IMG/VR virus record: IMGVR_UViG_2228664000_000050
Coordinates: 1-4,410 of that record
Length of the DNA stretch: 4,410 nucleotides
From: a virus
Lineage: Duplodnaviria; Heunggongvirae; Uroviricota; Caudoviricetes
Direction: 5' to 3' (one strand)
Below are positions 202-4,365 of the stretch, piece by piece. A program made the position numbers and the translations under genes. The notes beneath the pieces were generated by a model. That model had not been told where the DNA came from, searched no databases, and saw only the letters and a program-made list of their open reading frames with translations. Within the stretch, counting starts at the first letter, position 1. Each line of letters begins with the position of its first letter.

Positions 202-768
202 TCAGGGGGATTCATTGATCTTATTTGCCGGAAATTTTCTATAAATGGTAGAAACGCCTACATCAAAAATCAGTGCAATACGCTGTCTTGATTCTCCGGC
301 CTCGAGTAAACGCCCAATCTGTGCCCACTGTTCGGTAGTCAACTTAGGACGGCGTCCACCTACTCTGCCTTTGGCACGAGCTACAGCCAGCCCTGCCCTG
401 GTACGTTCAACTATCAGTTCGCGTTCCATTTCAGCCAGGGCACCCATGACATGAAAAAAGAAACGGCCCATTGGGGTACTGGTATCAATACTGTCAGTCA
501 GGCTTCTGAAATTCACACCACGCTGGCGCAACTCTTCTATCAGCGTAACAAGATGCCGCATACTGCGCCCCAACCTGTCCAGCTTCCAGACAACCAGCGT
601 GTCTCCTGCCGATAGTGTCCTGAGTAGTTTTTTCAGCCCCGGTCTGTCGGACTTAGTGCCACTGATTTTGTCCTCAAAAATCTGCTCACATCCCGCGCAG
701 TTCAGTGCATTACGTTGCAAATCGGTGTTCTGGTCATTTGTTGACACGCGTACATAGCCAATAAGCAT
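202..768 (-). CDS. Serine-recombinase DNA invertase (Pin/Gin/Cin/Hin family)
   Basis: The translation MLIGYVRVSTNDQNTDLQRNALNCAGCEQIFEDK...DRPGL...GDTLVVWKLDRLGRS...GRFFFHVMGALAEMERELIVERT has the catalytic-serine motif YVRVSTNDQ and a C-terminal helix-turn-helix (RIALIFDVGVSTIYRKF). The ORF opens at 774 (MIM...), but AGGGGG directly abuts that first ATG and lies 6 nt before the ATG at 768, which also reproduces the canonical MLIGYVRVS start. Confidence 0.93.
   Translation of the reverse strand: MLIGYVRVSTNDQNTDLQRNALNCAGCEQIFEDKISGTKSDRPGLKKLLRTLSAGDTLVVWKLDRLGRSMRHLVTLIEELRQRGVNFRSLTDSIDTSTPMGRFFFHVMGALAEMERELIVERTRAGLAVARAKGRVGGRRPKLTTEQWAQIGRLLEAGESRQRIALIFDVGVSTIYRKFPANKINESP
665..747. 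promoter_or_regulatory. Putative Fis-dependent recombinational enhancer inside the 5' part of the invertase gene
   Basis: In Hin, Gin and Cin the enhancer lies within the first ~100-150 bp of the invertase coding region. The matching region here (codons ~10-36, STNDQNTDLQRNALNCAGCEQIFED) contains a Fis-like G-N13-C 15-mer, GTGTCAACAAATGAC, on the minus strand at 733..747. The second Fis site is not clearly identifiable. Placement is by positional homology only. Confidence 0.3.
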
Positions 769-795
769 GATCATCCCCCTGAATAAAAACCGGAG

Positions 796-1302
796 ATGAT
801 GCCAGTTAGCTGTTACCTCTGCATTTTCTTAAACGTTGGTTTAGGAGAAGGTTCGGCATTACCCGTTGGTGTGCCTGTTCCGTGGCCTTCAGCTACACCA
901 CCGACAGGCTGGTTGAAATGCAATGGTGCAGCTTTTTCTGCTGAAGAATACCCGGAGCTGGCAAAGGCTTACCCGACAAATAAATTGCCTGATTTACGTG
1001 GTGAGTTTATTCGTGGCTGGGATGATGGGCGTGGAGTGGACAGTGGGCGAGCGTTATTGAGTGCTCAGAGCGATACGCTGCAAAATATTACAGGTAGCTT
1101 TTTGGATATGACCACGGGGCCAAATAATAATACTGTCGGCGCATTTACCTCTTCAACATTGACACCAAATCTCGCATCAATTGCGACAGGTGGTACATAT
1201 AAACAGGCGAATTATTATTTTGATGCATCACGTGTTGCCAGAACATCAACGGAAACACGTGCGCGAAATATTGCATTTAACTTTATCGTGAGGGCTGCAT
1301 AA
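796..1302 (+). CDS. Alternative tail-fibre C-terminal cassette (S'v-like, collar-type receptor-binding domain), promoterless and silent in this orientation; functional part begins at the crossover core near 837
   Basis: The frame opens just after a TAA at 784..786 and covers site 1. It encodes GLGEGSALPVGVPVPWPSATPPTGWLKCNGAAFSAEEYPELAKAY...LPDLRGEFIRGWDDGRGVDSGR, the pattern of the phage tail collar domain (CNG...YP.L...LPDLRG.F.RG). The only ribosome-binding candidate is a GGAG 0-3 nt from the ATGs, too close to be convincing. Its stop overlaps the downstream tfa start (TAATG at 1300..1304). Confidence 0.8.
   Translation: MMPVSCYLCIFLNVGLGEGSALPVGVPVPWPSATPPTGWLKCNGAAFSAEEYPELAKAYPTNKLPDLRGEFIRGWDDGRGVDSGRALLSAQSDTLQNITGSFLDMTTGPNNNTVGAFTSSTLTPNLASIATGGTYKQANYYFDASRVARTSTETRARNIAFNFIVRAA
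824..849. repeat. Invertase crossover site 1 (hix/gix/cix/pix-like 26-bp imperfect dyad) at the invertase-proximal border of the invertible segment
   Basis: TTTTCTTAAACG-TT-GGTTTAGGAGAA. Its reverse complement, TTCTCCTAAACCAACGTTTAAGAAAA, matches site 2 at 15 of the first 17 positions and fits the family pattern TTCTnnnAAACC-AA-GGTTTnnGAnAA. The central dinucleotide is TT at 836..837. Confidence 0.8.
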
Positions 1303-1904
1303 TGGATAACGCTGTATTAAATAGCGAGCTTATTGCCACGAAGGCGGGGAATATTACCGTCTATAGCTATGATGGTGAAACTCGGGAATATATTTCCACT
1401 TCAAATGAATATCTTGCCGTTGGTGTTGGTATCCCGGCATATTCCTGTCTGGATGAACCTGGTATACATAAGGCTGGTTATGCAATCTGCCGTTCGGCAG
1501 ATTTAAACTCATGGGAATATGTGCCAGACCATCGCGGTGAAATCGTCTATAACACCGAAACGGGAGACGCCAAAGAAATCACAGCTCCGGGTGATTACCC
1601 CGAAAATACAACCACTATCGCCCCGTTAACGCCATACGATAAATGGGATGGTGAGAAATGGGTGACGGATACCGAGGCACAGCATAGCGCCGCAGTAGAT
1701 GCAGCAGAAGCACAGCGCCAGTCGCTGATGGATACAGCAATGGCTTCCATTAGTCTGATTCAGTTGAAATTACAGGCCGGACGGAAGTTGACGCAGGCAG
1801 AAACAACCCGACTTAACGCCGTGCTGGATTACATTGACGCGGTGACGGCAACAGATACCAGCACAGCGCCGGACGTCATCTGGCCTGGACTGCCGGAGGC
1901 GTAG
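1302..1904 (+). CDS. Tail fibre assembly chaperone (Tfa/U'-like), cognate to the silent alternative cassette
   Basis: This 200-aa ORF is coupled to the upstream cassette by a TAATG overlap. Its C-terminus, TATDTSTAPDVIWPGLPEA, carries the conserved Tfa C-terminal motif that is also present in the other chaperone. Confidence 0.8.
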   Translation: MDNAVLNSELIATKAGNITVYSYDGETREYISTSNEYLAVGVGIPAYSCLDEPGIHKAGYAICRSADLNSWEYVPDHRGEIVYNTETGDAKEITAPGDYPENTTTIAPLTPYDKWDGEKWVTDTEAQHSAAVDAAEAQRQSLMDTAMASISLIQLKLQAGRKLTQAETTRLNAVLDYIDAVTATDTSTAPDVIWPGLPEA

Positions 1905-2319
1905 GCCATTCAATATCGGGTGCTGTTGAAGTATCAACACGCATCAGCAGCACACGGTATTTCTTCCATTGGGTGAGAGTTGAAGTTTCTTCATCAGTTG
2001 CAATGCCCGCATCAACAGCATCCTGACGCCAGGATATTTCACTGTCAGCTTTTGCACGAAATGTGGCTTTCATGTTTTCTGCATCTGATATTTTCTGTTC
2101 TGGTGAAAGCGGCGGCTCATCAACCCATGCAAGGGCCCCTGAAACCATTCTCAGCATTTTTCCTGTTGGCTTATTTCCCCCATTAAATCTGACAGCATCC
2201 TCATCGCTGATTTCAATACCATCCTGCGGCCATGTCCCCTCCTTGATATAACTTTCGTATAGCGCTGCGTTGTAGATTGCATTTTCGGAAGGGCTGTAAA
2301 CACTTTTAACTTTATTCAT
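1876..2319 (-). CDS. Tail fibre assembly chaperone (P2 G / Mu U-like), cognate to the currently expressed fibre
   Basis: This 147-aa ORF starts 4 bp after the tail-fibre stop, with GGGAGA about 6 nt upstream of its ATG. Its C-terminus, LLMRVDTSTAPDIEWPTPPAVQAR, resembles the P2 G C-terminus (RVDPANPEWP). Its 3' end overlaps the convergent tfa' by 29 bp (1876..1904). Confidence 0.85.
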   Translation of the reverse strand: MNKVKSVYSPSENAIYNAALYESYIKEGTWPQDGIEISDEDAVRFNGGNKPTGKMLRMVSGALAWVDEPPLSPEQKISDAENMKATFRAKADSEISWRQDAVDAGIATDEETSTLTQWKKYRVLLMRVDTSTAPDIEWPTPPAVQAR

Positions 2320-2323
2320 TCTG

Positions 2324-3763
2324 TTATCTCCCTTTCGCTATATAGCAAAGATTAAACCCACCGCTACCTGACATACGGGCTGTAAAACCCGTTCTTGAAG
2401 TACCAGTTGAGTTAACTCCATAAGCAGGCATGGTTGTTGGAGAAAGCAGAGACTCCTGGATATCTGCCATTGTCAGTGTAATTGATTCGACCCGCGCGGG
2501 GAAAGGTAGCGGGAAAACAACATTCGTCCCTGTCTGTCCAACGGGGAAACCGAAAATACCCCATTGTGTAATTACCCCATCCGGCCCCTTACTCCATCCA
2601 GATTTAGGATTCGGCCAGTCTGCTGCTCCAGAGTGCCCCGTTGTAAAACTACTCATATCTGGTACTTGCCCGGTATCCGTTCCGACGTTCCTCGTTGCCG
2701 CTTCTCCCAAACCAAGGTATGTGAGAAGACCAGCTACATCCTTTCCACTCAAATTGGTAAGCGTATTGTCCAGCGGTTGTTTACCTGACAGCGCATTAAG
2801 CATTGTCGTGGCAAAGTTCGGATCATTCCCCAGTGCCGCCGCCAGTTCGTTCAGTGTATCCAGTGCAGCAGGTGCAGAACCCACCATTCCTGCAATCGCC
2901 GATTTCACAAAAGCCGTAGTGGCAATCTGTGTATTGTTGACCGACTGCGCCGCAGTAGGTGCTGTTGGCGTTCCGGTGAGTGCCGGACTCGACAGCGGCG
3001 CTTTTAGTGCCAGCGCATTGTTAATGGTGGTACTGAATTTCGGGTCATTGTTAATGGCTGCGGCAATTTCTTTCAGTGTGTCCAGCGTGGCTGGCGCACC
3101 GTTAATCAGAGCAGTAATAGCGGCCTGAACAAACTCAGTGGTCGCAATCCGCGTGGTGTTATTTCCTGCTGCAGGCGTCGGCGCTTTTGGTTCTCCGGTA
3201 AATGTCGGATTATGTTTCTGCGCATACTGGGTATGAGGATCTTGTGCGGCAATGTGGTTTCTCATCTGGTCATCCACATACAGCTTTAATTCCAGGACTT
3301 CATCATCCACGTATTTACGGGTTGCCAGCACTACAGCAGGGTCGATTTTCAGGGTGATATTGTCCGTACTGCTGGTAATCAGCACCATGCGCACGGTCTG
3401 GGTGCGCCCGCTGCCTTCAGCCAGTTGCGGCTTATAGCTTTCCGGGCAGTTGCCCACGGCAATCAATGCCCCGGACTCATCAAACAGGCCCACTTCACGT
3501 ATCCACCAACCGCCCTCGTTTTCAGGGATCACCTGTTCAGCAATAATCTGGCTACTGTTCTGCGGGTCGATATAAAGCATATTCAGCGCAGCCCGGCGTT
3601 TCTCATTTACCAGTGCCGTCTGCTTTGCGTCCGGCGTTGGCAATACTCCGCCGCCATCGCCCACCGCCATATGGGTAATTTTTAGCGGCACACCGAGCGC
3701 GGCGGCGCTGGCAAGTTTCGCCGCGCCAATATCCGTCAGCAGGGTATAAAATTTTGTGCTCAT
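2324..3763 (-). CDS. Tail fibre protein (P2 H-like), 479 aa: constant N-terminal shaft (aa 1-350) fused to the currently expressed variable C-terminal cassette (aa 351-479)
   Basis: The N-terminus MSTKFYTLLTDIGAAKLA...MAVGDGGG...GGWWIREVGLFDESGALIAVGN...ESYKPQLAEGSGR and the block LNELAAALGNDPNFATTMLNALSGKQP closely match P2 H-type fibres. The start overlaps the gpI-like stop (ATGA). Crossover site 2 lies at codons 346-354. Confidence 0.95.
   Translation of the reverse strand: MSTKFYTLLTDIGAAKLASAAALGVPLKITHMAVGDGGGVLPTPDAKQTALVNEKRRAALNMLYIDPQNSSQIIAEQVIPENEGGWWIREVGLFDESGALIAVGNCPESYKPQLAEGSGRTQTVRMVLITSSTDNITLKIDPAVVLATRKYVDDEVLELKLYVDDQMRNHIAAQDPHTQYAQKHNPTFTGEPKAPTPAAGNNTTRIATTEFVQAAITALINGAPATLDTLKEIAAAINNDPKFSTTINNALALKAPLSSPALTGTPTAPTAAQSVNNTQIATTAFVKSAIAGMVGSAPAALDTLNELAAALGNDPNFATTMLNALSGKQPLDNTLTNLSGKDVAGLLTYLGLGEAATRNVGTDTGQVPDMSSFTTGHSGAADWPNPKSGWSKGPDGVITQWGIFGFPVGQTGTNVVFPLPFPARVESITLTMADIQESLLSPTTMPAYGVNSTGTSRTGFTARMSGSGGFNLCYIAKGR
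2702..2727. repeat. Invertase crossover site 2 (hix/gix/cix/pix-like) embedded in the tail-fibre coding sequence at the constant/variable junction
   Basis: TTCTCCCAAACC-AA-GGTATGTGAGAA. The left half and core match the family pattern, while the right half is degenerate, as expected for a site constrained by coding sequence. It lies over codons LLTYLGLGE; the core AA at 2714..2715 is codon positions 2-3 of Leu350 on the minus strand. Confidence 0.8.
2774..3178 (-). repeat. Diverged tandem duplication (~190 bp / ~60 aa unit, two copies) within the tail-fibre shaft (phage tail fibre repeat)
   Basis: Protein copy 1 (aa ~196-256) is TPAAGNNTTRIATTEFVQAAITALINGAPATLDTLKEIAAAINNDPKFSTTINNALALKAP. 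Copy 2 (aa ~266-330) is TPTAPTAAQSVNNTQIATTAFVKSAIAGMVGSAPAALDTLNELAAALGNDPNFATTMLNALSGKQP. DNA similarity is still visible, for example ttcagtgtgtccagcg at 3072..3087 versus ttcagtgtatccagtg at 2851..2866. Confidence 0.7.
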
Positions 3764-4365
3764 GGATTCACTCTCATTGTGTCAATAACATGGACCGCCC
3801 CGCCTTCATGCGCGGTGCCGCCGGAAATAATTGTTTCGTTGATATACGGATAGATCGTGATTTCTTCGCCAAGATAGCTGGCGGCTCCCACCCAATGCGG
3901 GCCGCTGGTCTGCAGGTTGATGGACATGCCGATCATGTGACGGCTACATGGTTTGGCATCGCTTATCAGTCGCTCAAGTTCCAGATAGGTATCTTCAGTG
4001 ATGCCCTGGTCCTGCACGCCGATATCCAGACGAAACGTGCCCGGTGCCTCTCCGATCTGCCACCACTCAATAATGCGGATCAGAAAGCCGAACGGCTCCA
4101 CCACCCGCCGCACGGCACTGGTGGTCCCTTTATGCTGATGAATATAAAAAGCATCCTTCACCACCTGGCGCTTGACGCTTTCTGTCCAGCCCTCGTCCCA
4201 GCGATCCACAGAGAACGCCCAGGCGAGATAAGGCAGGAAACTGATCGGACAGGTTGCCGGATTCCACAAGTCACGCAGCGGCACCTGCAGATCAGAAATC
4301 CCGCTACAGGTCTGCGCCAGTCGGCGCTCCAGTGAAGTTGAACCCGGTGGCAGCAGACTATTCAT
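3760..4365 (-). CDS. Baseplate/tail protein, P2 gpI-like (201 aa)
   Basis: The translation contains LWNPATCP...LPYLAWAFSVDRWDEGW...HKGT...RRVVEPFGFL...WW...PGTFRLDIGV...GITE...ERLISDAKPCSRH, matching my recollection of P2 gpI. It is coupled at both ends by ATGA overlaps and sits immediately upstream of the tail fibre gene, as in P2 (J-I-H-G). Confidence 0.85.
   Translation of the reverse strand: MNSLLPPGSTSLERRLAQTCSGISDLQVPLRDLWNPATCPISFLPYLAWAFSVDRWDEGWTESVKRQVVKDAFYIHQHKGTTSAVRRVVEPFGFLIRIIEWWQIGEAPGTFRLDIGVQDQGITEDTYLELERLISDAKPCSRHMIGMSINLQTSGPHWVGAASYLGEEITIYPYINETIISGGTAHEGGAVHVIDTMRVNP

Follow-up and report, generated by a model that had tools for sequence, protein, structure and literature searches.

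The closest described counterpart of the locus analysed here is the P segment of the e14 element of E. coli K-12 (stfP/tfaP/tfaE/stfE/pinE), in which the genes follow the same order. The e14 repeats TTGGTTTGGGAGAAGG flank the 1797-bp P segment, the inversion of which was shown experimentally, and these repeats are inverted by PinE, PinQ and PinR (PMC12529663). The invertase of Fels-2, a P2-like prophage of Salmonella LT2, is named Fin in the same work (PMC12529663), and inversion in the P2-like prophages of EPEC (E2348/69) was shown by sequencing and PCR (PMC4272514). The 26-bp sites and the Fis enhancer of the Din family are established (through references given in PMC3798978). The C segment of phage P1 with its invertase Cin (cixL/cixR) and the G segment of phage Mu with Gin (gixL/gixR) also have 26-bp sites with a 2-bp core, TT in P1, and in both phages the fibre-gene site marks the boundary between the constant and the variable part, as it does in the locus described below. 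A crossover site that encodes a motif in frame was reportedly discussed by Haggård-Ljungquist et al. in 1992 and by Sandmeier et al. in the early 1990s.

The DNA analysed, called the window throughout, is a stretch of 4,410 nucleotides. It was identified with high confidence as a tail-fibre host-range switch of a P2-like prophage, in which a serine DNA invertase recombines two inverted 26-bp sites. The features of the window are as follows.

202..774, minus strand: serine DNA invertase of the Pin/Fin/Cin/Gin type, 188-190 aa (Pfam Resolvase 8.8e-53 and HTH_7 1.4e-15)
824..849, plus strand: crossover site 1, adjoining the invertase gene (outer half 824-835, core TT 836-837, inner half 838-849)
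838..2713, no strand: invertible segment of 1876 bp, holding two tip cassettes in opposite orientations, each with its own assembly gene
838..1302, plus strand: alternative tip cassette of 154 codons, Collar domain, homologue of e14 stfE (Pfam Collar 1.6e-15)
1302..1904, plus strand: assembly gene partnering the alternative cassette, tfaE-like (Pfam Caudo_TAP 3.8e-32)
1876..2319, minus strand: tail-fibre assembly gene partnering the expressed cassette (Pfam Caudo_TAP 8.4e-33)
2324..2713, minus strand: tip cassette expressed at present, residues 351-479 of the fibre (Pfam Gp53-like_C 1.8e-09)
2324-3763, minus strand: expressed tail fibre of 479 aa, its N-terminal domain of the P2 gpH type and its C-terminal tip gp53-like
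2702..2727, minus strand: crossover site 2, within the expressed fibre gene (outer half 2716-2727, core AA/TT 2714-2715, inner half 2702-2713)
2714..3763, minus strand: constant part of the fibre, residues 1-350, homologue of P2 gpH (Pfam Phage_tail_fib N-terminal 5.9e-65)
3760..4365, minus strand: P2 gpI-type baseplate protein, upstream of the fibre gene (Pfam Tail_P2_I 1.5e-53)

The gpI-type gene places the switch in a P2-like tail module, and in the related records (among them that of E. coli LF4-1, L001) it is flanked at one end by gpJ, gpW and gpV and at the opposite end by the tail sheath. Each tip cassette is followed within the segment by its own tail-fibre assembly (U/Tfa) gene, so that two convergent Caudo_TAP genes are present; the counterpart of the gene at 1302..1904 is annotated as tfaE in L001 and in the record of E. 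coli 22-245 (L003). The locus is of the e14 P-segment type, that is, a Din-family switch in a P2-like prophage; this type is already known and nothing in it is novel in kind.

The reading frame at the two crossover sites was analysed by direct translation. Site 2 as given (2702-2727) is TTCTCCCAAACC-AA-GGTATGTGAGAA, which on the coding (minus) strand reads TTCTCACATACC-TT-GGTTTGGGAGAA; its outer half belongs to the constant part and encodes (L)LTY, while its inner half lies in the invertible segment and encodes GLGE. Site 1 (824-849) is TTTTCTTAAACG-TT-GGTTTAGGAGAA, and its inner half GGTTTAGGAGAA, the start of the unexpressed cassette, also encodes GLGE. The sequence-only reading had claimed this tetrapeptide for both sites and had put the core dinucleotide at codon positions 2-3 of Leu350 in the expressed fibre and of a Val codon in the silent cassette. 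All of these points were confirmed, with CTT at 2714-2716 and YLGLGE starting from residue 349, and with GTT at 835-837 in frame with GGT TTA GGA GAA (V-GLGE). The two sites are inverted, their cores being TT and AA and identical on the same relative strand, and the two inner halves differ at a single base (A against G at 843). The site pair is the top-ranked inverted repeat of the window (I1), and the 14-mer TTGGTTTRGGAGAA occurs in exactly two copies, inverted to each other, where 0 were expected in 200 shuffles, which shows that the repeat is beyond chance.

Inversion was then carried out in silico. Reverse-complementing 838..2713 gave an ORF of 504 codons from 3763 with neither a stop nor a frameshift, and the same sequence resulted when one or both core bases were included in the inverted stretch; the crossover is thus in frame in both orientations, as had been proposed. 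The constant part reads in frame into either cassette, and two fibre forms of 479 aa and 504 aa are obtained depending on the orientation. The further proposal that the recombination site doubles as the junction peptide between the constant part and the tips also stood, the boundary of the two coinciding with the site.

The comparison of the junction with those of Mu and P1, which had been suggested as a check, revealed the same arrangement, with the core at Leu positions 2-3 followed by G-L-x-E. The junction is IQN-L-GLQE in Mu S and IQY-L-GLRE in P1 S, and in-silico inversion yields a full-length S' in both phages. The motif (Y/N)-L-G-L-x-E is found in the same frame in Mu S, P1 S, Fels-2 H, e14 StfP and the non-invertible H of P2. 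The reading of the site as dual-coding is therefore supported, but as an inherited trait of the family and not a new one. The phage backbones of Mu and P1 differ from that of the window; Mu further differs in its core TC and a segment of about 3.06 kb, and P1 in a segment of about 4.26 kb (annotated boundaries in both) and in the orientation of cin, which is transcribed towards the segment with its 3' end abutting cixL. Gene H of P2 belongs to the same fibre family and carries EY-L-GLQE on a site-like TTATCGAATATC-TC-GGTTTACAGGAA in the same frame, but P2 is without an invertase and without a second site, and its site-like sequence is a fossil or a module boundary and not an active switch.

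The likeness to e14 is closest at the sites themselves. The core and inner half-site of e14, TTGGTTTGGGAGAAG, are the same as those of the window, and the published e14 repeat equals the core and inner half of site 2 except for its last base (PMC12529663). The site adjoining pinE reads TTTTCATAAACG-TT-GGTTTGGGAGAA, and its outer arm TTTTC(T/A)TAAACG is shared with site 1. In StfP the junction is ENLGLGE (EN-L-GLGE) with the core at Leu positions 2-3, as in the window. The stfE gene is homologous to the alternative cassette at 838..1302 with 55% identity, the first 66 residues being nearly identical. The e14 segment, of 1797 bp, is similar in size to that of the window, of 1876 bp. As an element, however, e14 has decayed: its constant part is truncated (StfP of 209 aa) and its expressed tip is another one, whereas the window has the full 350-residue P2 gpH-type constant part in an apparently complete P2-like tail module. 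Fels-2 shows the same order of gpI, fibre, invertible segment, invertase and sheath, and its H junction LLTY-L-GLGE has an outer arm identical to TTCTCACATACC. It differs in its tip cassettes and in its core, which is TC and not TT, so the sites of the two systems would not be productively recombinable with each other.

The quality of the half-sites did not bear out one argument of the sequence-only reading, which had explained a more palindromic site 1 and a degenerate right arm of site 2 by the dual constraint on the latter. Complementary positions number 9/12 in site 1 and 10/12 in site 2, and the outer arms of both sites are equal, each matching the family majority half-site at 9/12; over all half-sites of the window, agreement with the majority half-site derived from Mu, P1, Fels-2 and e14 ranges over 9-12 of 12 positions. 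The palindrome ranking and the arm degeneracy were therefore dropped, and the argument holds for one base only, an A-to-T change in the outer arm of site 2 (ATACC). This base falls in the Tyr codon TAC, and it is common to P1 cixR and Fels-2, which makes it plausible that coding constraint acts there; it is the sole detail of the palindrome argument that survived. Variability at synonymous positions was also compared between the 26-bp site and 50 upstream codons in 41 unique relatives. Third positions varied at 2/9 in the site and at 24/50 in the upstream codons, a difference to be read with the close relatedness of these sequences and their pre-filtering for an intact inner half-site in mind.

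The two orientations of the segment were found in nature. E. coli 22-245 (L003) has the orientation of the window and aligns with it as given at 96.8%, and E. coli LF4-1 (L001) has the opposite one, being colinear with the inverted window over 4410 nt at 96.7%. Between the two strains the right flank is 100% identical over 2210 nt and the segment is 99.84% identical and inverted; when L003 was inverted at the core, it gave a gap-free alignment with L001 over 5410 nt at 99.4%. The 504-aa protein annotated in L001 carries the alternative cassette and is identical to the predicted fusion at 482/505 positions, the same cassette is fused to the constant part in four further records (L012, L021, L023 and L024), and 124 E. 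coli records contain the predicted fused junction as one contiguous sequence. Among IMG/VR contigs, seven stop within the fibre gene with the final base of the 26-bp site as their own last base (L032, L033, L035, L037, L093, L099 and L102), and two more stop inside the site (L044 and L046). These contig ends look like assembly breaks caused by mixed orientations in the reads; the assembly of such prophages tends to be interrupted at the site or to fix a single orientation. The segment inverts at the population level, as is evident from both orientations in two strains, the 124 fused junctions and the contig ends.

The position of the crossover was examined with the same isomers. When the window was aligned with L001 by BLAST, the resulting pieces overlapped at 836-850 and 2701-2718 and nowhere else, which places the exchange within the common 15 bp TTGGTTTGGGAGAAG starting with the core, and the breakpoints of the two-strain isomers are confined to the same 15 bp. 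The possibility that the real crossover lies elsewhere, which would have undone the in-frame claim, was thereby removed; in the P1 record, too, the crossover of cixL and cixR, which are homologous to the sites of the window, is annotated in their central dinucleotide. The isomer comparison resolves the crossover to 15 bp only, and strand exchange exactly at the central dinucleotide would be expected from the homologous systems. A narrowing to about 7 bp would follow if the A/G difference at 843 were linked to its cassette. The A variant accompanies the collar cassette in both positions (in the window, and in L012, L021, L023 and L024), but other copies of the collar cassette carry G, so the linkage is suggestive only.

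Two other explanations of these data were weighed. YLGLGE may have been conserved as protein only, as a structural joint of the fibre, in which case the DNA repeat would be a by-product and the orientations would come from general homologous recombination or from choices made in assembly. The persistence of residues Y-L-G in relatives with as well as without an invertase within 5 kb, and in the non-invertible H of P2 (EYLGLQE), agrees with such a history, as does the shortness of the common repeat (15 bp). The same 15 bp, however, is far below what efficient RecA recombination needs, which speaks against the general-recombination part. A full-length Pin/Fin-type invertase lies 50 bp from site 1, and the outer arm of site 1 is non-coding for the fibre and yet forms part of a 26-bp site, with the 9/12 match given above. 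The intact inner half-site also tracks the invertase, being present in 25/27 loci with the enzyme and in 4/11 without it (Fisher p = 7e-4, not corrected for relatedness), and this association supports a DNA-level function of the inner half-site. With the matching e14 repeats being substrates of PinE, PinQ and PinR (PMC12529663), conservation as protein only is considered extremely unlikely.

The other explanation is a frozen relic, in which the sites and the invertase are still present, recombination has ceased and the in-frame property is merely historical. Many prophage copies are defective, the inner halves differ at 843, and the outer arm of site 1 has G in place of C beside the core (AAACG), all of which would fit a decaying switch. 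The AAACG arm, however, is shared by e14, whose segment inverts experimentally (PMC12529663). Near-identical prophages in both orientations and contigs that break at the site are also at odds with a halted system; the core dinucleotides are identical, which is a requirement for ligation, and the invertase ORF is intact with its catalytic Ser9 and HTH domain. A relic is accordingly rated as very improbable, and an invertase-driven switch is the reading followed below.

The invertase was analysed for the features of its family. Its likely start is ATG 768, and the catalytic Ser9 lies in MLIGYVRVST and is invariant in the alignment of the window invertase with Cin, Gin and the Fels-2 invertase. 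Identity is 87% to e14 PinE, 84% to the Fels-2 invertase, 77% to Cin and 74% to Gin, and the architecture is that of a small serine recombinase, with an N-terminal resolvase catalytic domain, Ser9 and a C-terminal HTH. The copy in the window is presumably active. In the Din family the Fis-dependent recombinational enhancer is located in the 5' part of the invertase gene, and the window has a region homologous to the annotated enhancer of P1, the mean column identity being 81% when four sequences are aligned; this region is also coding, and its conservation therefore does not prove an enhancer function. By analogy with the Din family, inversion would probably depend on Fis and the enhancer. A perfect 12-bp inverted repeat frames the invertase ORF at 200-211 and 773-784 (ATTCAGGGGGAT and ATCCCCCTGAAT); both arms are missing from L001 and one of the two from each of L002 and L003, and because the repeat is not kept in these three relatives it is most likely due to chance.

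The mechanism proposed by homology with Hin, Gin and Cin is as follows. A dimer of the invertase would bind each site (824-849 and 2702-2727), and 2-bp staggered cuts at the central TT/AA, rotation and strand exchange would flip 838..2713. The 350-residue constant part would thereby be joined in frame to either tip, giving the fibre of 479 aa or of 504 aa, since the core forms positions 2-3 of Leu350 and the inner halves start at a codon boundary (GGT TTR GGA GAA). Together with each tip, its own chaperone gene for assembly would come to lie in the direction of transcription, and the 26-bp site would serve both for protein binding and as the coding sequence of the peptide (L)LTY-L-GLGE. A change of host range upon inversion would be expected by analogy with the known switches.

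The junction was also followed among related loci picked by a 20-nt junction pattern. In these loci YLGLGE links at least three different, unrelated upstream contexts to at least six tips. Three loci (L106, L108 and L109) have a cassette start identical over 28 nt to that of the alternative cassette of the window; in L108 and L109 it stands behind a P1-type cixL outer arm (CAATCCTAAACC and CAATCTTAAACC, respectively) and in L106 behind an e14-type constant part (…ALEN-L-GLGE). The same 28-nt start behind P1-type and e14-type sequence indicates that tips are exchanged between phage types at the site. The known role of the (Y/N)LGLxE-coding site as a common tip-exchange junction among P1-, P2-, Mu- and e14-type elements is thus restated.

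Decay of the inner half-site was seen in L038, L054, L060, L075, L079, L081, L084, L085, L098 and L103, and the junction peptides of such decayed sites include YLGLGK, YLGLGT, YLQLGE, YLGVKE, YLGLGH, YLNLGN, YLGIKN and YLGLRT. In most of these relatives the downstream sequence covered contained no full-length invertase match. L054 and L103 keep the full invertase alongside a deviant site, which may represent a frozen switch or a tolerated variant.

The upstream side of site 1 is open in the fibre frame. An in-frame ATG (796/799) and a leader of 14 codons, MMPVSCYLCIFLNV, at 796-837 continue through the site, so that the tip located there, in either orientation, makes up a complete ORF (about 140-170 codons). 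Every relative examined, as well as e14 (MPFACYFFIFINV) and Fels-2, retains the ATG and the open frame, while the substitutions in the leader reveal no bias towards synonymous changes. The equivalent product formed after inversion in e14, StfE2, is reported to block adsorption of phage T2 (PMC12529663). On this basis the cassette next to the invertase might not be silent, and the switch would then toggle both a fibre tip and a free receptor-binding domain for superinfection exclusion or defence. This extension is judged unlikely; if true, the frame constraint at the Val codon of site 1 would be functional and not incidental. A weak terminator-like hairpin with a T-run after it was noted at 788-807 on the minus strand (consensus match only), in the interval from site 1 to the invertase start; it could shield the invertase gene from transcription that reads through from the fibre operon.

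For annotation, the analysis identifies the locus as an active-looking host-range switch and has little import beyond that. The ORF at 796-1302, given as a separate "phage tail protein" in the records of the relatives, is to be read as the alternative C-terminus of the fibre. Some minor features of the encoded proteins were also observed. The convergent assembly genes share 29 nt at their 3' ends (1876-1904), and the C-terminal motif of the two assembly proteins is similar, DTSTAPD-(V/I)-x-WP. In the translated constant part of the fibre, a repeat of about 60 residues occurs twice in tandem at residues ~210-300 (window 2860-3130; …TTEFVQAAITALINGAPATLDTLKEIAAAINNDP… and …TTAFVKSAIAGMVGSAPAALDTLNELAAALGNDP…).
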